From Dehalococcoidia bacterium (GTDB lineage Bacteria; Chloroflexota; Dehalococcoidia; DSTF01; RBG-16-68-14), in contig JBBEBM010000009.1 of the NCBI GenBank assembly GCA_040882355.1, positions 1 to 43,869 of the forward strand: a stretch of 43,869 nucleotides of DNA, in the 5' to 3' direction. Each line of letters begins with the position of its first letter. Position 1 is the stretch's first letter. Positions 18,007 through 43,869 of this stretch are shown here, piece after piece. The translations under genes and the position numbers were made by a program. Under the pieces are notes generated by a model. The model saw only the letters and a list, made by a program, of their open reading frames with translations. It was not told the origin of the DNA and ran no database searches.

Positions 18007-18817
18007 CTAGGAAGGCTCGTCGGCGAGGCCGAGGAGCTGCTCGCTGGCGGCGAGGAAGTCGCTCGCCTGCTGGACGAGCCGGCGGGCCTCCTCAGCGCCG
18101 ACTTCATCTCGGTAAGGAGTAGTCAGCCTTGTTGCGCGCAGAGAAGGCGCGGCTGAACGCCTGCCCTAGCGCAGCGGGGAGTCGCTTCGTCTTCACGTAC
18201 CGCTCGTTGAAGGCGCTGATCACGCCTCGATGTCGAGAGAACGCCAGCCCTTACGAGAGCAGCAACGCTGTGGCCGCGTGGAACATCGCGTAGTACGCGC
18301 GGTTGGCCGCCCAACCAGATAGCTTCTCGTTCAGTCCGATCCGCGCACCTTCAAGGGCTTCGTGAGCCCGGCGCAGCACCAGTTCCAGATCATCCTTCTG
18401 AGTGTCCTCATACCGCGGCCGCTCCTCGCGCACACGCGTCGGCCGGCCCGCCGACCACAGCTCGACGCCCTCGCGCCGGATGTTCATGAAGAGCGGCAGC
18501 ATCCGCGTGCGGTAGTCCGTCTCTGTGGCGACGAGCGGCGCGAGCAGCGGGTATTCGAAGTGCTCTTCAAGATCGTAGGCGAGGCTCACCGGCACCTCGT
18601 GTTCCGTCCCGACGTCGAAGTCGTCGCGCAGCACGACCAGCAGGTCTACGTCCGAGCCTTCCTCGTCGGCGTCGCCGCGGGCGCGCGAGCCGTAGAGGAC
18701 GACCGCAGCGAGCCGGTCGCCGTAGTGCGCGAGTACTTTCTCGACGAAGGCGCAGACGGCGCGCTGCCAGGGGGCGTCCCCGCCGATAGCTGGGTTGACG
18801 GTCGCCGCGCTGGTCAT
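18007..18817 (-). pseudogene. MNT-HEPN fusion with HEPN half disrupted (TAA at 18251-18253 and +1 frameshift near 18114)
   Basis: LYGSRARG...SDVDLLVV (MNT); NRAYYAMFHAA, then past the stop GLAFSRHRGVISAF...RNKADY, and in a shifted frame EEARRLVQQASDFL to TAG at 18007. Confidence 0.85.
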
Positions 18818-18827
18818 GCTTGATCGG

Positions 18828-19559
18828 CTAGTGGCCGTCGCCTCCTCCACCACCGTCGCCGGGCGCGTCGGGCGTCGGCGCGGGCGGCGCATCTGGCGCT
18901 GGCGCGGAGGGCGCGGCCGCCGAGGGCGCGGCAGCGGGCGGCGCAGGCGGAGCGCCGGCCGCCGGACTCGCCGGCATCCCGGCGCCGCCGTTCTCGAACG
19001 AGAACGGCGGGTACTCGTCGACGAGCGAGGCCATGTACGCCAACACGCGGGCGTTCCAGCGCAGGTACCCGCGGATGAAGTTCTCGGCCCAGTCGGGGGA
19101 GGTGCCGTTGATCAGGATCGAGACCGCCGCGATCAGCCAGACGAAGAAGAAGACGATGCCGATGATCCCCAGGACGATCGCGTGCGGGATCGCCAGGATG
19201 ATCCGAAGCAGCGCCTGACCCACCGACGGCTTGCCCGTGGGCCGCACGTTGAACTGCACAACGTCTTCGGGCTTCTCAGTCGAGAGCTTGTCGGTGGCGA
19301 GCGCCATGTAGCTGTAGAACATCAAGAGGAAGCGCAACCATCTAGTAGGGCCCTGCTCCGCCTCCGCAAGGTACTTCTCGGGCCCCTTCTGCGAGATCAT
19401 CACCGCCGCGATGATCGGAAAGGCCAGGTACGCGCCGCCAAAGACGAACGAGGTGACCTGGAAGATGGAGAGCGCGATCAAGATCACGACTCGCAGCAGG
19501 ATCTGCATCTTGTCGAACTGTTGGGGCGGTTGAATGTCGAATGTGGCGGGATAGGCCAT
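18828..19559 (-). CDS. DUF4389-like membrane protein with Pro/Ala-rich tail
   Basis: RIILAIPH, LRWNARVLAYMASLVDEYPPFS. Confidence 0.82.
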   Translation of the reverse strand: MAYPATFDIQPPQQFDKMQILLRVVILIALSIFQVTSFVFGGAYLAFPIIAAVMISQKGPEKYLAEAEQGPTRWLRFLLMFYSYMALATDKLSTEKPEDVVQFNVRPTGKPSVGQALLRIILAIPHAIVLGIIGIVFFFVWLIAAVSILINGTSPDWAENFIRGYLRWNARVLAYMASLVDEYPPFSFENGGAGMPASPAAGAPPAPPAAAPSAAAPSAPAPDAPPAPTPDAPGDGGGGGDGH

Positions 19560-19657: not shown

Positions 19658-20218
19658 TCACGCCAACCCCCTCCGGTAGCCGTACTCCACCGTCGCGCTC
19701 AGGTCGCGCAGCTCGCGCGTTTCGGCGGCGCGCGCGTAGCCGAGCCGCTCGTACAGGCGATGCGCGTCCTCGAAGCGCGTGTCCGACCAGAGGAAGACCT
19801 CACGCGCCCCGCGCGACGCCGCCTCCGTCTCCACCAGCTCGACCAGCCGCGCGCCCAGGCCTCGCTTGCGCCAGCGACGGTGCACGTAGAGCATCCGCAG
19901 CTCCGCATCGTCCGACGCCGCGCCCGTACCCTCGCCCTTGGGGAGAGGGTCGGCCGAAGGCCGGGGTGAGGGCTCCGACGCCGCGCCCGCCACGAGCCCC
20001 ACCGTCGCGACGAGGCGGTCGCCGGCGACGACCACCCACAAACGCCCGCCCCAGCCGGCGTACGCGCTCGCGATCGCGCGGAGGTGCGGCATCTCGCCAT
20101 CGACGTCCAGCACGCAGCCCTCGTACTCGGACCAGCACGACGCCACCAGCCCGATCACGTCGTAGCTGTCGTCGTCGGTGGCGTCGCGAACGGTGAGACG
20201 GTCCGTGTCGATGGTCAC
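19658..20218 (-). CDS. GNAT N-acetyltransferase carrying a 21-aa in-frame repeat insertion
   Basis: AELRMLYV, RKRGLGARL, LWSDTRFEDAHRLYERLGY. Confidence 0.88.
   Translation of the reverse strand: MTIDTDRLTVRDATDDDSYDVIGLVASCWSEYEGCVLDVDGEMPHLRAIASAYAGWGGRLWVVVAGDRLVATVGLVAGAASEPSPRPSADPLPKGEGTGAASDDAELRMLYVHRRWRKRGLGARLVELVETEAASRGAREVFLWSDTRFEDAHRLYERLGYARAAETRELRDLSATVEYGYRRGLA
19911..19989. repeat. 47-bp palindromic element (19927-19973) flanked by exact 16-bp direct repeats
   Basis: TCCGACGCCGCGCCCG at 19911-19926 and 19974-19989; insert on minus strand GCCCTCACCCCGGCCTTCGGCCGACCCTCTCCCCAAGGGCGAGGGTA. Confidence 0.85.
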
Positions 20219-20238: not shown

Positions 20239-22821
20239 TTAGAGTTCGACGATACCCTGGTCGCCGTCGACGGTGATCCACTGGCCGTCGCGGATCGTCG
20301 ATGTCGCGTCGCGGGTCATGATCACGGCCGGGATGCGGTACTCGCGCGCGACGAGCGCCGCGTGCTGGAAGACCGCGCCCTGGTCGAGCACAAGCCCTCC
20401 CAGCAGCGGGAAGACCGGCGTCCAGTTCGGCCCAGCGTTGACGGCGACCAGGATCGCCCCCTTCTCGACCTTGGGCGGCCGGGCCGTCATCGGCACGACG
20501 CGCGCCTTACCCAACACGCGCCCGCGCGAGCCGGCCACGCCGCGCAGCACCTTCCCGTCCAGTCCGACGCCCTCCGGCAGGTCGAAAATCGCGAACGGCG
20601 CGGCCGGCGGCGGCCCGCCCGATCCGATGTTCAGGGGCGGCCGCAAGCCCAGGCGCCGCTCGTGCTCGGCCTGGCGTTCCCGCACGATCGTGCGCAGGTC
20701 CTGCGGGCCGCGACCGGACGCGATGCGCCGCAGCTCGGCAACGGGGAAGTGCAGCACGTCGTCGGGGTCGTCGAGACGCCCTTCGTCGACAAGACGCCGG
20801 CCGACGAAGTAGATCGACTCGCGGAACGCGCCGCCGGTCGCCTGCTCCATCATGTGATTGTGGTTCTCCATATCGCAGACTTCTTGCTGCGCCTGCGAGA
20901 GCATGCGGTCGAAGCGAGCAAGGCGCGTTGGGTCGGCGGCCAGCATCCGGCGCACGCGCCGCGTCTGGCGCAGCCGTTCGGCGCGCGCCTCGACCTCGAG
21001 TCGATCGAGGCGGTCGAGTTCGAGCTCGGCGTAGGCGGCGATCATGTCGAGCGGCTGCTCGGGCTGCATGCTCCACGTCGGCGTGTCGAACAACGTCGCC
21101 GAGCCGAAGCCGCGGCCAGTCCGACGGCCGTGACGCTTGAGGAGGCGGCGAAACCCCTCGTTGAGGCGCCGCACGCCCGGCCGCTCGCGCACGCGCCGGT
21201 CGTCGAGGCGCTCGTACGCGCGCGTGGCGAAGATCGAACGCAGCGTCCGGTCCTGCTGGACGAGCCTCGCCAGCCCACGCAGCGAGCGGATCATGCGCGT
21301 CGTCTTGTTCTCGATGGCCTGCAAGAAGACACCGGCATCGACCTGGGGCTCGCCGGTGAGCTCCGTGTAGACAGCGCCCCAATCGAGCCGGCGCGAGATG
21401 TTCGCCCCGGCGAAACGCCAGTGCAGGTCGCCGAGCACGCGGGAATACGCCCGCATCGCGCTCTCCATGTGCGCCACGAGCTCCTTCCGCGACGCGCGCT
21501 CCGGCCGGAAACGTTCGAGCTCGCGCACGATCTCTTCGACTTCTGGGCGAAGCTCTTCCTCCCAGATCGACGTGCTGCGGTCGTAGTACTTCTGGGCGCG
21601 TGCGCCGTAGCGCTGCAGAAGCGCCGCAACCTTCGCTTCGTCCACATCCGGGCCACGGCCGTAGGAGAAGCCGTCGATGAAGCAGATGATGTGGTTCCGC
21701 GCGAGCGGCGAACCGGTCGCGTTGAAGCAGGCCCGCGAACCGGCGTAGTACGCTCTCAGCGCGTCCTGCTCGAGGCGACGTGTCGGCACCGCTCCGCGTT
21801 GGGGGATGCGATAGAGGAGCCATGTATGGTTCGCGTCCTCCGGCTTCTCCCAGACGATCGGAAAGTCGGGCGTCTCATCGACCGCGGTCACCGGCCGCGC
21901 CTGCAATAGATGGACGGAACCGTTGCGCACCGCGAACTCGATGTCCTGGTGGCCTTCGAAGAGCCCTCGCACCGACGTGGCGAGGCTGGCCAGCTCAATC
22001 AGGTGCTGCTCGCGGAGCGCGGGCGCCGTCTGCTCCTTCGACCGGACCTTGACTCGGCGCAGGCCGCCCCGCCGGGCGAGCGTGACCTTGTAGTCCTTCG
22101 TAGCGATCTCACGGTCGAGGACAGCGCCGCTCTCCGGGTGCAGGCCGAAGCGATCGGCGGGCGCCTCGCCCGCCACGACACCCTCGCCCATGCCGAGCGC
22201 CGCGTTCACGACGTAGCGGTTCTCGTCGCTCGTCATGGGGTCGCGCGTGAAGAGCACGCCAGCCGCTTCCGCGGGCAGCAGCTCCTGCACCACGACGGCC
22301 ATGCGCACGTCTCCGTCCGCTATGGCCCGCTGGCGACGGTACGAGACCGCCCGCGGCGAGTAGAGCGACGCCCAGACGTGCAGGATGCGCTGGAGGATCT
22401 CGGCGGGCCCGAGCACGTTGAGGAAGCTGTCGTACTGCCCGGCGAAGCTGGCGGTCGGCAGGTCCTCCGCCGTCGCCGAGGAGCGCACGGCGACCGCCGG
22501 GGCGCCCATCGAATGGTGCGCGTCGTGGACGGCGCCAACGATGTCGTCCGGCAGCTCGTGCCGCTCGAGGCGCTTGCGCGCGCTGCGATACGCATACTCC
22601 AGCGCATCGAGATCGGCGACGTCGACCCCCGCGAACGTCGCTTCGATCTCCGACAGCAGCCCGTCCGTGCCGCGCTCGAACGCGTGCGCCGTGACGACGA
22701 AGCCGGCTGGCACCGGCAGCCGCGCCTTGATCATGCGCGCCAGCGCCGCCCCCTTCGCCCCCGCAATGGCGGGGTCGTGCGCAGCGGTGTCGTGAAGTGG
22801 AATGACGTGTCTGCGGGTCAT
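20239..22821 (-). CDS. PEP-utilising enzyme, PEP synthase / rifampin phosphotransferase-like architecture
   Basis: GAKG, VAVRSSATAEDL..ASFAGQYDS, QDIEFA, LLQARP; C-terminal QHAALVAREYRIPAV (phospho-His) and VDGDQG. Confidence 0.9.
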   Translation of the reverse strand: MTRRHVIPLHDTAAHDPAIAGAKGAALARMIKARLPVPAGFVVTAHAFERGTDGLLSEIEATFAGVDVADLDALEYAYRSARKRLERHELPDDIVGAVHDAHHSMGAPAVAVRSSATAEDLPTASFAGQYDSFLNVLGPAEILQRILHVWASLYSPRAVSYRRQRAIADGDVRMAVVVQELLPAEAAGVLFTRDPMTSDENRYVVNAALGMGEGVVAGEAPADRFGLHPESGAVLDREIATKDYKVTLARRGGLRRVKVRSKEQTAPALREQHLIELASLATSVRGLFEGHQDIEFAVRNGSVHLLQARPVTAVDETPDFPIVWEKPEDANHTWLLYRIPQRGAVPTRRLEQDALRAYYAGSRACFNATGSPLARNHIICFIDGFSYGRGPDVDEAKVAALLQRYGARAQKYYDRSTSIWEEELRPEVEEIVRELERFRPERASRKELVAHMESAMRAYSRVLGDLHWRFAGANISRRLDWGAVYTELTGEPQVDAGVFLQAIENKTTRMIRSLRGLARLVQQDRTLRSIFATRAYERLDDRRVRERPGVRRLNEGFRRLLKRHGRRTGRGFGSATLFDTPTWSMQPEQPLDMIAAYAELELDRLDRLEVEARAERLRQTRRVRRMLAADPTRLARFDRMLSQAQQEVCDMENHNHMMEQATGGAFRESIYFVGRRLVDEGRLDDPDDVLHFPVAELRRIASGRGPQDLRTIVRERQAEHERRLGLRPPLNIGSGGPPPAAPFAIFDLPEGVGLDGKVLRGVAGSRGRVLGKARVVPMTARPPKVEKGAILVAVNAGPNWTPVFPLLGGLVLDQGAVFQHAALVAREYRIPAVIMTRDATSTIRDGQWITVDGDQGIVEL

Positions 22822-22828
22822 GCGGTCT

Positions 22829-22838
22829 ACGTTAGCAC
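22829..22838 (-). promoter_or_regulatory. Extended -10 element for a leaderless PEP-utiliser transcript
   Basis: Minus strand GTGC-TAACGT, then 7 nt to ATG 22821; no SD. Confidence 0.45.
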
Positions 22839-22861
22839 GGCGCGGTGCCAGTTGGCGGGTT

Positions 22862-22924
22862 CGCGCTGTCCACCCTCACCCGGCCTGCCGGCTGCCCCTC
22901 TCCCAATGAGAGAGGGGCGCGTGC
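22862..22924. repeat. 63-bp direct repeat with internal palindromes, copy 1 (downstream of DUF559 gene)
   Basis: 55/63 identical to 23390-23452; CCCTCACCC...CCCCTCTCCCAATGAGAGAGGGG. Confidence 0.88.
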
Positions 22925-22959
22925 CGCTTGCGCTCCCCTGGAGCCGAGAAGCTCTGAGG

Positions 22960-23358
22960 TCACGAGCGTTCCCCAAGCACGCGAGGGGTGAGCAGATGAA
23001 GCTCGCGCCGTACGCTCTCCGCAACCGCATTCATGTTCTTCTCGACCTGTTCCGCATCGATGCGGAGCACGCGAAGGCCCAACGCTTCGAGGATCTGCTG
23101 ACGCCCGCGGTCAGCGGCCCGCTTCCCAAGGTGGATCGGGCCGTCGATCTCCACGATCAATCCGGCCTCATCACAGTAGAAGTCCACCACGAACGAACCG
23201 ATCGGCTGCTGACGGCGAAACTTGTAGCCACCCAGCTTTCGACTTCTCAGCACATCCCAGAGCAACGCCTCGCTTGGCGTCGGCTCCCGCCGCAACTCGC
23301 GCGCAATCTCCACCATCCGCTCCCTCAATTCTGCCGTGACGAGTTCGTCAAACCGCAT
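22960..23358 (-). CDS. DUF559 / Vsr-like endonuclease domain protein
   Basis: ARELRREPTPSEALLW, GYKFRRQQPIG.FVVDFYC, IVEIDGPIH, DRGRQQILEALGLRVLR. Confidence 0.92.
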   Translation of the reverse strand: MRFDELVTAELRERMVEIARELRREPTPSEALLWDVLRSRKLGGYKFRRQQPIGSFVVDFYCDEAGLIVEIDGPIHLGKRAADRGRQQILEALGLRVLRIDAEQVEKNMNAVAESVRRELHLLTPRVLGERS

Positions 23359-23389
23359 CTTTCCGGCCAAGTCTACATGTCATCTTGAG

Positions 23390-23489
23390 CGCGCTGCCGT
23401 CCCTCACCCTGCCTACCAGCTACCCCTCTCCCAATGGGAGAGGGGCGCGTGCATCCTGGTGTTTCCCGCACACGCGCGTGGGGTGAGGG
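23390..23489. repeat. Direct repeat copy 2 (23390-23452) plus closing GGGGTGAGGG arm (upstream of DUF559 gene)
   Basis: CCCCTCTCCC-AAT-GGGAGAGGGG perfect stem; CCCTCACCC (about 23401) can pair with GGGTGAGGG (23481-23489). Confidence 0.88.
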
Positions 23490-23553
23490 CCCCCGCAGTG
23501 GCCGGGTCGCGCGACGCAGCGTGATGGAGCGGGATGACGTGTTTAGCTACCAC
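23489..23553 (-). pseudogene. Orphan 5' fragment of the PEP-utiliser gene
   Basis: GTG 4 nt after the ilvD stop; MVAKHVIPLHHAASRDPATAGA versus MTRRHVIPLHDTAAHDPAIAGA; homology ends at the repeat arm. Confidence 0.8.
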
Positions 23554-23557
23554 TGTG

Positions 23558-25249
23558 CTACCCGCAGACAGCGCCCTCTGACGCCGAGGAAACCAGCCGC
23601 GCATACTTGGCGAGCGCCCCCCACGTGTAGTGCGGCGGGGGCGGCGTCCACGCGGCCAGCCGGCGGTCGATCTCCTCCTTCGGCACGTGCAGCTCCAGCC
23701 GGCGGTTCGCGGCGTCGACGGTGATCTGGTCGCCGTCCTGCACGATCGCGATCGGCCCGCCGACCGCGGCCTCGGGCGCGACGTGGCCCACCATCAGCCC
23801 GCGCGTTGCGCCGGAGAAGCGGCCGTCGGTCACCATCGCGATCTGGTCGCCGAGGCCCTGCCCGACGAGCGCGGCCGTCGTCGCGAGCATCTCGCGCATG
23901 CCGGGGCCGCCCTTCGGCCCTTCGTAGCGGATGACGACGACGTCGCCCGCCTGGATCTCGCGCCGCTCGACCGCGGCGAAGCACGCCTCCTCGCCGTCGT
24001 AGACACGAGCGGGGCCGGTGCGATCCAGGTGCGCGACCGACGCCACCTTCGCGACAGCGCCCTCGGGCGCGAGGTTGCCGCGCAACACGACGATCGTGCT
24101 CCCGCCCGAGAGCGCCTTCTCGACCGGGTGCACCACGTCGCCGTCGGGCGAGACGTTGATCGCATCGAGGTTCTCGGCCATCGTCTTGCCGGTGACGGTG
24201 AGCGCGTCGCCGTGGAGCGCGCCTGCCTTCAGCAGCTCCTTCAGCACGACAGGCACCCCACCGACGCGATGCAGGTCGGCCATCACGAACGTACCGCCCG
24301 GCTTGAGGTCGGCCAGGTGGGGCGTGCGCGCGCAGACCTTGTCGATGTCGTCCAGCGTGAAGTCGACGCCCGCCTCGCGCGCCAGAGCGAGGAGATGGAG
24401 CACCGCGTTCGTCGAGCCGCCGACGGCGACCGCGACCGCGATGCCGTTTTCGAGCGCCTCGCGGCTGATGATGTCGCGGGGGCGGATGTTCCGCTCCAGC
24501 AGGTTGAGCACTGCCTCCCCCGTGCGGCGGCAAACGTCGGTGCGCTCCGGGAAGACGGCGGGCACGGCGGCGCTGCCGGGCAGCGCCAGGCCGACGGCCT
24601 CGCTCACGGCGGCCATCGTATTCGCGGTGAACATGCCGCCGCACGAGCCGGCGCCAGGACAGGCGACGTGCTCCAGCTCCAGCAGGTCGGCTTCGCTCAT
24701 GGTGCCGGCGCTGTGCGCGCCCACGCCTTCGAAGACGTCCTGCACGGTGACCGGACGCTCGTGGTAGGTGCCGGGGAGGATACTGCCGCCGTAGAGGAAG
24801 ACGCTGGGCAGATTGACGCGCGCCATCGCCATCATCATGCCAGGCAGGCTCTTGTCGCAGCCGGCGATGCCCGCGAGGCCGTCGTAGGCGTGGGCAAGCA
24901 TCATCACCTCGGCCGAGTCGGCGATGATCTCGCGGCTGACGAGCGACGCCTTCATCCCCTCGTGGCCCATCGCCATCCCGTCGCCGACGGCGATCGTCGC
25001 GAACTCGCGGGGCGTGCCGCCGGCGCCCTTCACGCCCGCCTTGACGTGCTGCGCCAGACCGCTCAGGTGCATGTTGCAGGGCATCGCCTCGTTGCCGGCG
25101 TGACCCACGGCGACGATGGGCCGCGTGAGGTCATCGTCGGTGAGGCCCATCGCGTAGAAGTACGAACGGTTGGGCGCGCGCTCGGGCCCCTCGGTCACCT
25201 GCCAGCTCCTGGGCTTCGTGCCGGCGTGCGTGGCGGTTTCGGTGGTCAT
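23558..25249 (-). CDS. ilvD: Dihydroxy-acid dehydratase
   Basis: [61 protein letters not shown]. Confidence 0.97.
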
Positions 25250-40122: not shown

Positions 40123-41985
40123 ATGTTCGTGATAGGGACCGCAGGCCACGTCGATCACGGCAAGTCCGTGCTGGTGGAGGCGCTCACGGGCATCAACCCC
40201 GACCGGCTGCGCGAGGAGAAGGAGCGCGGCATGACGATCGACCTGGGGTTCGCCTGGATGACGCTACCGTCCGGTCGCCAGGTGAGCATCGTCGACGTGC
40301 CCGGGCACGAGCGCTTCATCAAGAACATGCTCGCGGGCGCGGGCGGCGTCGACCTCGCGCTGCTCGTCATCGCGGCGGACGAGGGTGTCATGCCCCAGAC
40401 GCGCGAGCACCTCGCCATCCTCGACCTGCTCGGCGTCGCCAGCGGCGTGCTCGTCATCACGAAGCGCGACCTCGTCGAAGAAGAGATGCTCGCGCTGGCC
40501 GAAGCGGACGCGCGCGAGGCCGTCGCGGGCACGACGCTCGCCGGCGCGCCGCTCGTCGCCTGCTCCGCGCTCACCGGCGACGGCCTCGACGAGCTGCGCC
40601 GCGTCCTCGACGAGCAGCTCGAAGCGACGGCGGCGAAGCGCGACGTCGGCCGCCCGCGCCTGCCCATCGACCGCTCGTTCACGATGTCCGGCTTCGGCAC
40701 GGTCGTCACCGGCACGCTGATCGACGGCGCGCTCGAAGTCGGCCAGGAGGTCGAAATCGTCCCGGGCGATCTCCGCGCGCGCATCCGCGGCCTCCAGAGC
40801 CATCGAGAGCAGGTCGAGCGGGCGCTGCCCGGCTCGCGCACCGCCGTCAACCTGGCGGGCGTCGCCAAGGACGACGTCCGGCGCGGCCAGGTGCTCGCCC
40901 TGCCCGGCACGATTCGCGCGACGAACGTCCTCGACGTGCGCCTGCGCGCGCTCGCGTCGAACCGCCGCCCGCTCCGCCACGACACGTCGCTCACGCTCCA
41001 CGTGCTCTCGGCGGAAGCGCCGGCGCGCCTGCTGCTGCTCGACCGCGACGAGCTCGCGCCGGGCGACGAGGGCTGGGCGCAGCTCCGCCTCGGCGAGCCG
41101 GTCGCCGCCGTCAAGGGCGACCGCTTCGTCCTGCGCACGCCCAACGACACCGTCGCCGGCGGCGAGATCGTCGATACGCGCCCCAAGCGCCACCGTCGCT
41201 TCCACGCGCCGACGCTCGACGCGCTCGAGACGCTGTTGCGCGGCTCACCTGTCGAGGCGCTCCTCGCCACGCTCGCTCGCATCGAGCCCGCTTCGCTTGA
41301 CGCGCTCGCCCGCGAGACGAACGCGTCGCTGGACGAGCTGCGCGCGTCGGTCGAGGCGCTCGTGCAGGAGGGCCGCGTCGTCGCGCTCGGCAACGCGCTG
41401 CTCATCACCGCCGACGGCTTCGCCGCGCTGGGCGAACGGGCGCGCGCCGCCATCGACGCGTACCACCGAGAGCACCCAACGCTTCGGGGCGTGCCGCGCG
41501 AGGAGCTGCGCAGCCGCCTCCGGCTCGACGAGCGCGTCTTCGCCGCCGCGCTGGCCCGCTGGTGCGACGACGGCCTGCTCGTCGAAGCGGGCGCCGCAGT
41601 CGCGCTTCCCGGCCACGCGCCCAGCCTCACCCCCGCCCAGCAGGCCGAGGCCGACGCCTACCTCGCATCGATCGCCGCGAGCCCGCACGCGCCGCCCACC
41701 GACCGGGCGCCCTCGGCGGAGCTGCTCGCGTACCTCGAAGACGCCGGGCGCGTCGTCTCCGTCGGCGACGGCGTCGTCTTCACCGCCGAGGCCTATCGCG
41801 AGATGGTCGACCGCGTCACCGACCACCTCCGCCGCGAAGGCGCGATCACCCTCGGCCAGACGCGCGACCTCTTCGCCACCACCCGCAAGTACGCCCAGGC
41901 CCTCCTCGAGCACCTGGACGAGCGCCGCGTGACGCGCAGGGTGGGCGACGAGCGGGTGCTGCGGGAGCGGTCTGGCAACGGATAG
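40123..41985 (+). CDS. selB: Selenocysteine-specific translation elongation factor
   Basis: IGTAGHVDHGKS, EEKERGMTIDLGF, DVPGHERFIKNMLAG, TKRD, C-terminal TRKYA..LLEHLD...RVGDER. Confidence 0.96.
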   Translation: MFVIGTAGHVDHGKSVLVEALTGINPDRLREEKERGMTIDLGFAWMTLPSGRQVSIVDVPGHERFIKNMLAGAGGVDLALLVIAADEGVMPQTREHLAILDLLGVASGVLVITKRDLVEEEMLALAEADAREAVAGTTLAGAPLVACSALTGDGLDELRRVLDEQLEATAAKRDVGRPRLPIDRSFTMSGFGTVVTGTLIDGALEVGQEVEIVPGDLRARIRGLQSHREQVERALPGSRTAVNLAGVAKDDVRRGQVLALPGTIRATNVLDVRLRALASNRRPLRHDTSLTLHVLSAEAPARLLLLDRDELAPGDEGWAQLRLGEPVAAVKGDRFVLRTPNDTVAGGEIVDTRPKRHRRFHAPTLDALETLLRGSPVEALLATLARIEPASLDALARETNASLDELRASVEALVQEGRVVALGNALLITADGFAALGERARAAIDAYHREHPTLRGVPREELRSRLRLDERVFAAALARWCDDGLLVEAGAAVALPGHAPSLTPAQQAEADAYLASIAASPHAPPTDRAPSAELLAYLEDAGRVVSVGDGVVFTAEAYREMVDRVTDHLRREGAITLGQTRDLFATTRKYAQALLEHLDERRVTRRVGDERVLRERSGNG

Positions 41986-42020: not shown

Positions 42021-42099
42021 GTAGGGGCGGGTCTCAGACCCGCCCACAAACGTCACCCTGTCGTGCGCCCTTGTGGGGCGGCTCGCGAGCCGCCCCTAC
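42021..42099. repeat. GTAG-type REP inverted doublet
   Basis: GTAGGGGCGGGTCTCAGACCCGCCC ... GGGGCGGCTCGCGAGCCGCCCCTAC. Confidence 0.8.
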
Positions 42100-42168: not shown

Positions 42169-43689
42169 GTGGAATACGACGACATCATCGTGGGCGCCGG
42201 GTCGTGCGGGTGCGTGCTCGCCGCCAGACTGAGCGAGGACGGGCAGCGCCGCGTCCTGCTGCTCGAAGCGGGCCCTGATTACCCGACGCTCGACGCCCTG
42301 CCGCACGACCTGCTCGACTATCGCCACGTCGGCTCGGACGACCACGACTGGCACTTTCAGGCCGAGGCGGTGCCAGGCAGGCGGATCGACTTCCCGCGCG
42401 GCAACGTCGTCGGCGGATCGTCCGCGATCAACGGCGCGATCGCCCTGCGCGGCACCCCGGCCGACTTCGATGAGTGGTCGCGCCTCGGCAACGACGAGTG
42501 GTCGTGGGAGAAGGTGCTCCCCTTCTTCCGCCGCCTCGAAGCGGACCCGGACGGCGATGCCGCTCTGCACGGCCGCGCCGGCCCGCTCCCGATCCGCCGC
42601 GCGAAGCGGCCCGAGTGGATCTCGATGCAGCAGGCGTTCTTCCAGGCCTGCCGCGCCCTCGAGTTCGACGAGGCCGACGACCAGAACGACCCCACCGCGA
42701 CGGGCGTCGGACCGTCGCCTAACAACGCGCCCTTCGGCGTCCGCGTATCGACCGCGATGGCCTATCTCGGGCCCGCGCGCCACCGCGAGAACCTGACGGT
42801 TCGCGCATCGGCGCCGGCGCGACGCGTCATTTTCGAGGGCGAGCGAGCCGCCGGCGTCGAGCTGGCGAACGCGTCCGGCGAAGTCGTACGGGGCGGGCGC
42901 GTCATCCTCGCCGCGGGCGCGATCGGGTCGCCGGTCATCCTCCTGCGTTCGGGCATCGGCCCGGCGGCCGACCTTGCCCGTTGGGGCATCCCGATCGTCC
43001 GCGACCTGCCGGGCGTCGGCGGCACGCTCATCGATCACCCTCAGGTCGGCTTCAACTTCGCCGTCCAGCCGGGCACGCTCGGCCCCAGCGCACCCATGTA
43101 CCAGCTCATACTGCGCTACACCGCCGACGGTTCCAGCGACGAGAACGACATGCAGCTCTGTCTGTGGCACTACCCCGACAGCTCGTCGAGCCGCTTCTCC
43201 TCGATCCTCCAGAAGCCGCGCTCGCGCGGACGCCTCTCGCTGACAGGCGCCGGCAACGACGATCCGCCCGCGATCGAGCTCAACTTCGCGTCCGACCCGG
43301 ACGACGCGCGCCGGCTGGAGGAGGGCCTTCAGCTTGCGTTCGAAGTGCTGGGCTCGCCGCACCTCGAGCCGTTCGTCGGCGACGAGCTGCACTGGGACGA
43401 CGGCATATCGATGCCATTGGTCCAGGCGAAGGAGGCCATTGCAGACGAAGCCTTCCGCCAGGACTACGTGCAGCGTACGGTGGGCACCCTCTACCACCCC
43501 GTCGGCACGGCGCGCATGGGCCCGCCGACCGACGCCGGCGCCGCCGTCGATCAGTACTGCCGGGTGCGCGGCGTCGAGGCCCTCGTTGTCGCGGACGCCT
43601 CGGTGATGCCCGAGATCCCTCGCGCCAACACCAACCTGACCTGCATCATGATCGCCGAGCGCGTGTCGGACTGGCTGCGGTCATTGTAG
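42169..43689 (+). CDS. GMC family oxidoreductase (choline dehydrogenase-like)
   Basis: YDDIIVGAGSCG, LLLEAG, GGSSAING, LLRSGIG, YHPVGTARMG, ADASVMP, NTN. Confidence 0.93.
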   Translation: MEYDDIIVGAGSCGCVLAARLSEDGQRRVLLLEAGPDYPTLDALPHDLLDYRHVGSDDHDWHFQAEAVPGRRIDFPRGNVVGGSSAINGAIALRGTPADFDEWSRLGNDEWSWEKVLPFFRRLEADPDGDAALHGRAGPLPIRRAKRPEWISMQQAFFQACRALEFDEADDQNDPTATGVGPSPNNAPFGVRVSTAMAYLGPARHRENLTVRASAPARRVIFEGERAAGVELANASGEVVRGGRVILAAGAIGSPVILLRSGIGPAADLARWGIPIVRDLPGVGGTLIDHPQVGFNFAVQPGTLGPSAPMYQLILRYTADGSSDENDMQLCLWHYPDSSSSRFSSILQKPRSRGRLSLTGAGNDDPPAIELNFASDPDDARRLEEGLQLAFEVLGSPHLEPFVGDELHWDDGISMPLVQAKEAIADEAFRQDYVQRTVGTLYHPVGTARMGPPTDAGAAVDQYCRVRGVEALVVADASVMPEIPRANTNLTCIMIAERVSDWLRSL

Positions 43690-43869
43690 GGGCGGGTCTC
43701 AGACCCGCCCACAGACGTTGACCTGACATCCGGCGTTGCCTTCCAGGATGCTGCACGCCGAACGCGCAGACGCGTTATCACACCGGCCGAGCTGGTGGCG
43801 ACCTGAAGGTCGCCGCTACACATCCCATCAACCAAGGCGACATGTAGGGGCGGGTCTGAGACCCGCCCC
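43686..43869. repeat. Cluster of three GTAG-type REP units at the window end
   Basis: 43686-43710 and 43844-43869 match the 42021 unit; 43796-43819 is an inverted variant TGGCGACCTGAAGGTCGCCGCTAC. Confidence 0.8.

Follow-up and report, generated by a model that had tools for sequence, protein, structure and literature searches.

A 43,869-nucleotide stretch of the genome of a Dehalococcoidia bacterium (the window: the whole of the DNA analysed, contig JBBEBM010000009.1 of assembly GCA_040882355.1) carries a gene for a DUF559 endonuclease between two BoxC/TM-type repeats. Repeats of the BoxC/TM type, which are linked to genome instability, were already known in the 1990s. The unit, BoxC/TM-DUF559-BoxC/TM, is about 670 bp long and its position is best explained as an insertion at codon 22 of a gene for a phosphoenolpyruvate (PEP)-utilising enzyme (the PEP-utiliser gene). 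A cassette inserted in a gene start with the old start apparently left behind points, from sequence comparison, to DUF559 as the missing agent that spreads the BoxC repeat.

A gene start duplicated across a nuclease cassette

The features of the locus, in the direction of transcription, are as follows.

23558 to 25249, minus strand: ilvD, the upstream neighbour, whose 3′ junction holds different genes in different members of the family
23488 to 23553, minus strand: dead first 22 codons of the PEP-utiliser gene, starting 4 nt past the ilvD stop
23390 to 23489, minus strand: BoxC/TM-type element 5′ of DUF559, placed by repeat comparison, its layout compared with TMECO
23489 to 23480: outer pyrimidine tail of the 5′ element, abutting the dead gene copy
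23445 to 23423 and 23409 to 23401: hairpin and purine third-strand tail of the 5′ element, with a 14-nt linker before the tail
22960 to 23370, minus strand: DUF559 endonuclease gene, encoding 136 aa if translation starts at TTG and 132 aa if it starts at the ATG at 23358
22862 to 22992, minus strand: BoxC/TM-type element 3′ of DUF559, with its hairpin at 22917 to 22895 and purine tail at 22881 to 22873
22992 to 22985: remnant of the pyrimidine tail of the 3′ element, inside the DUF559 3′ end
22822 to 22872, minus strand: spacer from the 3′ element to the live start, with a string at 22837 to 22829 that we take to be extended -10-like and that ends 7 nt before the ATG
22756 to 22821, minus strand: live first 22 codons of the PEP-utiliser gene, the putative incoming allele
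20239 to 22821, minus strand: PEP-utilising phosphotransferase-like target gene (PPDK_N and PEP-utilizers, 860 aa)
19911 to 19989, minus strand: gene-free TM copy in a GNAT acetyltransferase gene, with a perfect 16-bp duplication either side

The open reading frame (ORF) at 23413–23604, which a sequence-only reading of the window had taken for an orphan gene upstream of the nuclease, is no separate gene: it contains codons 1–22 of the PEP-utiliser gene, and this dead copy stops exactly where the outer pyrimidine tail starts. The live gene resumes 666 nt past the dead copy; the duplication measures 66 bp. This duplicated 5′ end, taken for the orphan gene in the sequence-only reading, is the direct repeat related to insertion. 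The two starts are identical at 42 of 54 nt in the aligned block, with 3, 2 and 7 mismatches at the first, second and third codon positions. A homologue (P0002, 87% identical over residues 1–120) shares 17 of 18 residues with the dead copy and 13 of the 18 with the live one; residues 23–320 of the PEP-utiliser are identical to it at 270 of 298 positions (91%). Because P0002 is closer to the dead copy, the dead copy is probably the displaced resident 5′ end, and the live start an incoming allele that arrived with the cassette. The closest metagenome relative (L140) has the same layout, with a gene start of about 54 bp duplicated on either side of the cassette.

The DUF559 gene has a GC content at third codon positions of 0.75, compared with 0.89–0.94 in two neighbours. 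A Pfam scan of 36 window ORFs, which covers frames of about 90 codons and longer that pass its frame filter, contains no transposase, integrase or reverse transcriptase family, in agreement with the sequence-only reading. An assembled contig of run X1, possibly the source sample, spans the locus unbroken (20341–23914, 0 differences), and three further runs of the same study match it piecewise.

The flanking repeats and their family

Two 63-bp copies (22862–22924 and 23390–23452, 55/63 identical) bracket the minus-strand DUF559 gene, as first described. Each contains CCCTCACCC and a 10-bp pyrimidine/purine hairpin, with one stem mismatch in the 22862 copy, and has a distal arm (at 23480–23489 and at 22985–22992, the latter within the DUF559 3′ end). 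The string LTPR is read both at the DUF559 C terminus and in ORF 23413–23604 because an arm is translated in each.

On the minus strand, a C-rich stem and, after it, a G-rich stem enclose a 3-nt loop in each copy, and 14 nt of linker separate the G-rich stem from a mirror G-rich tail. Both copies fit the BoxC/TMECO stem pattern (9-nt C-rich stem, loop of 3–6 nt, 9-nt G-rich stem and mirror G-rich segment, with at most one mismatch). The second loop is 14 nt in both rather than the 3 nt of strict TMECO, so the repeat is a BoxC/TM variant and no strict TMECO member; most other TM copies in the family have short linkers. By their sequence pattern, the window repeats are variants of the E. coli BoxC/PIT/TM intrastrand-triplex motif. 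The 3.33-Mb source genome contains 49 core hairpins at 44 loci, against 1 and 3 in two order-5 Markov simulations, so their abundance is no chance effect, and the TM pattern is found in all 16 family genomes with 0 control matches. Folding z-scores are about −3 for the 23390 copy and only −1 to −1.8 for the 22862 copy, as computed with ViennaRNA, which models Watson–Crick and wobble pairs only and leaves triplex pairing outside.

In relatives, upstream tails are pyrimidine in 13 cases and purine in 3, and downstream tails purine in 18 and pyrimidine in 5. The description of the repeats as direct therefore holds at this locus but not in general: across the family the arrangement is mostly an inverted pair with tails outward, and the direct orientation in the window arises because its copies are double-tailed. 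Two other identities were rejected: the lone Rfam match (whalefall-1, 17.8 bits versus 37) is at chance level, and Caulobacter CIR and CGTC-tagged REPs, judged by their published descriptions, differ in motif. The available text of Holder et al. (2015, PMC4666352) leaves the mechanism and origin of BoxC/TM motifs open and reports no mobiliser, and a 2026 review, in its available part, still describes what triplexes do in bacteria as largely unresolved (PMC13463272).

DUF559 genes of this clade are linked to TM repeats

In this clade, the link between DUF559 genes and TM repeats is both tight and specific. Linkage was scored with a generic pyrimidine/purine hairpin detector at no more than about 280 nt from the gene, with distal windows as controls. 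All three DUF559 genes of the source genome touch a TM. A hairpin lies beside each of the 25 strong DUF559 matches with both flanks in the source genome and its relatives (3/47 distal windows), and beside 60 of 70 loci from GTDB (7/270 distal windows) spread over Chloroflexota, cyanobacteria, Bacteroidota, Planctomycetota, Proteobacteria, Patescibacteria and others. The GTDB set is the best 80 of 595 matches to an alignment of TM-flanked proteins, and its result therefore describes this DUF559 clade and not all of PF04480. The counts omit four weak DUF559 matches (L020–L023, one of which, a degenerate copy, had a hairpin), loci with less than 150 nt of flank, and L279 and L280 as duplicates of L278. 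True Vsr genes have no hairpin (0/30).

Repeat number also tracks the gene. Across 200 genomes of the phylum, with DUF559 called at E ≤ 1e-15 and kin not independent of one another, at least two hairpins are present in 55 of 57 DUF559-positive genomes and 46 of 143 negative ones (medians 20 versus 0). Of 20 mixed families, 18 have more hairpins in the positive genomes; with the cassette's own two copies subtracted, this holds for 15 of 19. Vsr presence shows no significant trend with hairpins (26/42, p = 0.12). Both the enrichment beside the gene and the tracking of copy number had been put forward as checks in the sequence-only reading, and both came out in its favour.

The ycjD gene of E. 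coli K-12 belongs to DUF559 and has a BoxC-like hairpin at its end; a full TMECO lies between this hairpin and fabI. At the ycjD 3′ end (L032, 2820–2990) a 22-nt piece of the gene end is repeated past the first hairpin, a gene-end duplication of the same kind as those treated below, on the nuclease gene itself. A ycjD-negative E. coli allele was considered as a clean empty site and discarded: the place is taken by an efflux operon (PMC12817139). DUF559 genes flanked by TM-like hairpins also occur in Neisseria gonorrhoeae (L369) and, with an inverted pair, between sufB and sufC of Sphingomonas (L371); that of a Picosynechococcus plasmid (L370) has no TM-like hairpin.

Gene-end duplications abut the third-strand tail

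Duplications scoring at least 14 flank 11 of 42 TM loci in the source genome, compared with 4 of 400 random sites and none of 40 loci of GTAG-type REPs. Among relatives, they are present at 11 of 61 TM loci, and of whole cassettes 5 of 24 in relatives and 4 of 56 in GTDB have them, against 2 of 450 controls; the relatives' duplication and tail-side counts omit seven overlapping or own-genome loci. A raw control on other hairpins gave duplications at 220 of 300 loci, an artefact of N-filled scaffold gaps; once clustered, the loci score in 5 of 171 cases for other hairpins and 1 of 3 for CGTC-like loci, all six lying at such gaps.

The duplicated ends measure 16–80 bp (median 38). Nineteen of the 21 framed duplications are 3′ ends or internal, and several finish at a stop codon. 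They are one-sided with respect to the repeat: one copy touches the third-strand tail at its outer end, and the other stands 20–90 nt off on the opposite side. In 13 of 14 single-tailed elements the tail-side duplicate is the nearer, and in 11 it lies within 12 nt, compared with 0 on the other side.

Framing used a codon model; 8 of 29 cases have no frame, and rows L008 and L016 are mis-delimited, adding 1/1/1 and 0/0/0. Mismatches in the 21 framed cases number 16, 12 and 45 by codon position (p = 7e-7 versus one third). The third-position excess gives p = 0.001 against a rough null of 0.43 for one neutral and one selected copy, a null that GC-biased decay would raise. The TM in the GNAT gene adds 63 nt (21 codons) and keeps the frame, and with its perfect duplication is probably a young event; no GNAT orthologue was found at E ≤ 1e-30 in 15 relatives, hence there is no empty allele for this in-frame TM.

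These duplications bear on the idea that the cassette is a composite resembling a miniature inverted-repeat transposable element, moved in trans by a transposase elsewhere (for example Y1/RAYT) with DUF559 as cargo. Inverted TM pairs do resemble terminal inverted repeats, and the source genome has three PF01797 matches. The duplications, however, differ from short target duplications of fixed length in being long, variable and diverged; the GTAG-type REPs of the same genome show none; the identity of the cargo would be expected to be less uniform; and the available text of Holder et al. reports no transposase or integrase remnants at TM sites (PMC4666352). We regard this explanation as very improbable.

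The cassette occupies many sites

DUF559 genes of this clade occupy many unrelated sites. A group (98/90) unites the window protein with copies from the ilvD end, from the uvrB end and from a fourth site, in a tree whose bootstrap is unsettled and in which most forks are open; the names uvrB and rarA, here and below, are read from flanking translations with no family search behind them. At the ilvD end the cassette is missing from nine of ten relatives; the tenth carries one of its own there, 57% identical, whose repeats form an inverted pair at the stop codon. The sequence-only reading had called for empty ilvD/PEP-utiliser junctions; the relatives without a cassette differ there in gene content, and no clean empty allele was found among the ten, which include no genome of the same genus. 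The ilvD 3′ junction (23558; L117–L126) is hypervariable, with nucleotidyltransferase-HEPN-like genes, DUF4389 copies, a protease-like ORF and others alternating, and one relative (G006) has a duplicated ilvD end and two DUF4389 copies with no TM.

Behind a rarA-like gene, 11 more distant family genomes divide into four with a cassette, three with a lone hairpin and four with neither (the truncated L368 is omitted). One of them, G007, has two tandem DUF559 cassettes there, with three alternative gene ends and intervening cargo (L364, G007:C5:163728-167534). In the source genome, a lone TM on contig C68 near 62844 has the linker and about 20 nt of the rarA-end flank of the cassette on contig C82 (near 607–1150), which might mean that flanking DNA travelled along with the repeat, or that the two contigs are related copies.

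A putative nuclease of the Vsr fold

The DUF559 protein matches PF04480 with E = 2e-33 (114.9 bits, against a gathering cut-off of 20.6). Its predicted structure (predicted local distance difference test 90) matches NGO0050 (3hrl, Z 16.8), I-Bth0305I (3r3p, Z 13.6) and Vsr (1cw0, Z 10.6), superposing with root mean square deviations of 2.1 over 94 residues of 3r3p and 2.0 over 96 residues of 1cw0; I-Bth0305I is also found by sequence match. The putative catalytic residues are E34, D63, D76, H80 and D87. Across 21 sequences D63, E74, D76 and H80 are invariant and E34 and D87 nearly so. The model places the protein as a putative enzyme in the Vsr-fold PD-(D/E)XK nuclease family, with the E-D-x-H-D residues and a Vsr-like catalytic domain, as in EDxHD homing endonucleases. 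Only DUF559-type Pfam matches were obtained in the gene, even to E of 1, with no HUH Y1 transposase, GIY-YIG or NUMOD match, and the protein is a single domain of 136 aa with no DNA-binding extension. A homodimer prediction (score 0.08 against a mark of 0.42) gave no answer and was not used.

Strong DUF559 matches also lie within open frames of more than 1000 aa, probably large-enzyme fusions (G208:C8, G139:C148, G225:C90, G184:C19, G112:C27 and G175:C6, the last with a hairpin about 95 nt downstream). In the source genome, a GIY-YIG match (G000:C42, near 40578–40913) adjoins a TM and a different palindromic motif, possibly an Ssn-type pairing.

The fold raises the possibility that DUF559 is a passenger: a Vsr-like mismatch-repair nuclease, inactive on TMs, that was caught once between two TMs, themselves terminators, stabilisers or recombination hot spots. 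Caulobacter VsrA (CCNA_02930), a DUF559 protein of 177 codons, spaces the first four putative catalytic residues in a similar way and, according to the available text of its description, shows evidence of DNA-damaging activity in vivo and has an SOS phenotype that needs loss of a cytosine methyltransferase (PMC12907096). Against this, a crude C5-methyltransferase motif adjoins none of 77 DUF559 loci but 8 of 30 Vsr genes, and no PF00145 gene was found in the 94%-complete source genome, which carries three DUF559 genes; a role in very short patch (VSP) repair is weakened by both. Nor does a passenger predict repeat numbers that track the gene within families, or repeats kept across phyla. We think it quite unlikely.

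The match to I-Bth0305I, second best by fold and also found by sequence, favours another possibility, a minimal homing endonuclease that would cut an empty double-stranded target near the insertion point, repair from the filled allele then copying the cassette, with TMs protecting the filled site or marking where copying stops. The repeated occupation of the rarA-like end and the allele-derived look of the duplicated ends would suit it. The missing NUMOD or other DNA-binding extension, the presence of one clade at unrelated targets, and gene-free TMs that carry the same duplications at dozens of different genes all speak against it, and we hold it to be improbable.

A model for spread of the cassette

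In the model that we favour, DUF559 would be the cognate nuclease of the repeat, recognising the TM when its hairpin and third strand are folded in single-stranded DNA (ssDNA), for example DNA entering by transformation; ComEC is present in the source genome. DUF559 would cut at the edge of the tail, and the cut end would be joined illegitimately into a recipient gene, a few codons from the gene end. Host homologous recombination would fix the other side of the incoming piece, which would carry a related allele of the same gene end. The outcome would be an old gene end that is displaced and dead, a new allele end in use, and an intact host gene. The nuclease would supply the cut only, joining being left to host enzymes, and lone TMs would arise by the same route in trans or be left behind once the nuclease gene is lost. 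SsnA may serve as a precedent for an ssDNA cut beside a flanking hairpin, and restriction-modification insertions as one for the scar; the predicted catalytic fold shared by DUF559 and a homing endonuclease would also count in favour. Taken whole, with DUF559 cutting at the TM tail, host recombination anchoring the other end and the element spreading, the model seems to us about evenly poised between right and wrong.

A nuclease that is cognate to the repeat need not spread it. DUF559 may instead cut TM-bearing incoming ssDNA and so limit or tune transformation, in the manner of SsnA, while TMs multiply through host processes, with forks stalling and templates switching at the triplex, and the duplications are scars of repair. 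Such a role would explain the same gene–repeat linkage. SsnA restricts integration, with no spreading of its repeats demonstrated in the available text (PMC11893778); TM loci are described as unstable in E. coli; ycjD lies at one fixed site in 3378 of 5426 E. coli genomes; and 32 of 143 DUF559-negative genomes have at least 10 hairpins. It fits less well with DUF559 genes being spread over many unrelated sites and recurring at a single one with alternative gene ends, or with duplications that are one-sided relative to the tail. We judge it unlikely, although it deserves to be kept in view.

Several observations weigh against the spreading model. The richness of some DUF559-negative genomes in hairpins is one. 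The comparison that makes the dead copy resident spans 18 residues, and a second homologue, P0003, separates the copies little (14 versus 12 residues, dead versus live). The third-position bias can also come from selection on the live copy together with GC-biased decay. About three quarters of TM loci, and most cassettes (19 of 24 in relatives, 52 of 56 in GTDB), have no detectable duplication. Homologues without a hairpin make up 10 of 70 GTDB loci, 27 of 34 viral loci and 1 of 3 loci of a plasmid collection, and across five E. coli strains repeat counts hardly distinguish those with ycjD (23 and 15) from those without (2, 11 and 13). A clean empty allele is missing at ilvD, as noted above. 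No cassette at another position was found to be nearly identical, the metagenome scan included; the nearest DUF559 genes are 53–68% identical in DNA and at most 63% in protein, so recent movement of the cassette is unsupported. No read joint bypassing the cassette is among those listed in the four runs, with 53 further joints beyond that list. Finally, VsrA, the sole DUF559 protein studied in vivo, is interpreted in the available text as a VSP repair nuclease (PMC12907096).

Relation to known systems

RAYT is an HUH tyrosine transposase that cuts and rejoins DNA, and the Vsr fold has no HUH tyrosine for strand transfer. The latter makes Ssn/NTS a closer analogue than RAYT, which the sequence-only reading had preferred. 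Ssn/NTS resembles the cassette in its small single-domain nuclease gene between its own dispersed hairpins, in gene presence that tracks repeat number, and in a repeat-gene-repeat layout whose likeness to an insertion sequence its authors remark on; it differs in that Ssn is a GIY-YIG protein with CGTC-tagged hairpins, in place of a Vsr-like fold and a third-strand tail, and the available main text does not mention DUF559, Vsr or boxC (NTS/SRM; Chenal et al. 2025, PMC11893778). REP/RAYT REPtrons likewise pair a repeat family with a dedicated enzyme gene between copies, according to the available text (Di Nocera et al. 2013, PMC3733652). The DUF559 gene, unlike theirs, has no HUH domain, and the GTAG-type REPs of the source genome have no long flanking duplications.

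BoxC/PIT/TMECO shares the pyrimidine stem, short loop, purine stem and mirror purine tail, and is multicopy, mostly intergenic and patchy between relatives, with one E. coli copy between ycjD and fabI; target duplications are not reported in the available text, and the words 'ycjD' and 'endonuclease' are absent from the main text (PMC4666352). The window copies differ in having a mini-hairpin in the 14-nt second linker, in place of 3 nt, and tails on both sides. The EDxHD enzyme I-Bth0305I has the same predicted catalytic fold, used by a mobile element, whereas the cassette has no N-terminal NUMOD region, intron or intein and has many unrelated targets (available text of PMC3239194). Restriction-modification insertions with long target duplications are also nuclease-bearing units with no transposase, and leave a long variable duplication, often spanning a start or stop codon, with the target gene intact (Furuta et al. 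2010, PMC2853133, available text). The cassette differs from them in having no methyltransferase, ends set by TMs, gene-free repeats with the same scars, and copies that look like two alleles.

As the partner of its repeat family in a transposase-free unit, the role proposed for it in the sequence-only reading, DUF559 appears to come through the comparative tests; the repeat itself, by contrast, was already known. Literature linking DUF559 or YcjD to BoxC/TM was not found in a search made mostly at title and abstract level and outside subscription journals and the original BoxC/PIT papers. Both parts are known, and we found no publication that joins them; the pair works like Ssn/NTS and REP/RAYT and belongs to neither.

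Other features of the window

The spacer before the live PEP-utiliser start may, from its -10-like string, hold a promoter of that gene's own, a weak possibility; a sigma-70 scan returned 0 sites there. At 18251–18892 and upstream, a nucleotidyltransferase and a partial HEPN ORF resemble an MNT-HEPN toxin-antitoxin pair, the frame at 18251–18892 stopping early relative to homologues of about 260 aa in relatives. A second palindromic family, of GTAG type, surrounds a GMC oxidoreductase gene (42024–42060, 43689–43725 and 43833–43869).

Implications

The locus adds the anatomy of a junction, in the form of duplications that abut the tail and evidence that the displaced copy is probably the resident allele. 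Because pairing the gene with the repeat supplies a protein, a candidate substrate and a predicted cut site at the outer end of the third-strand tail, one assay addresses both the substrate of DUF559 and the mobiliser of BoxC/TM. In its widest form, the proposal would make TM-DUF559-TM an autonomous, pan-bacterial, transposase-free element, in which a triplex-reading Vsr-fold nuclease swaps allele ends and can bring any cargo, with BoxC repeats as non-autonomous derivatives; at gene boundaries it would offer a nuclease-guided way to replace allele ends and capture genes. This generalisation is possible but doubtful. Were the pairing true, it would be a third independent partnership of nuclease and repeat, after HUH/REP and GIY-YIG/NTS, and DUF559 would possibly be the first enzyme to read an intrastrand triplex and, like Ssn, a candidate ssDNA tool. 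It would also be reason to re-examine the repair reading of Caulobacter VsrA.

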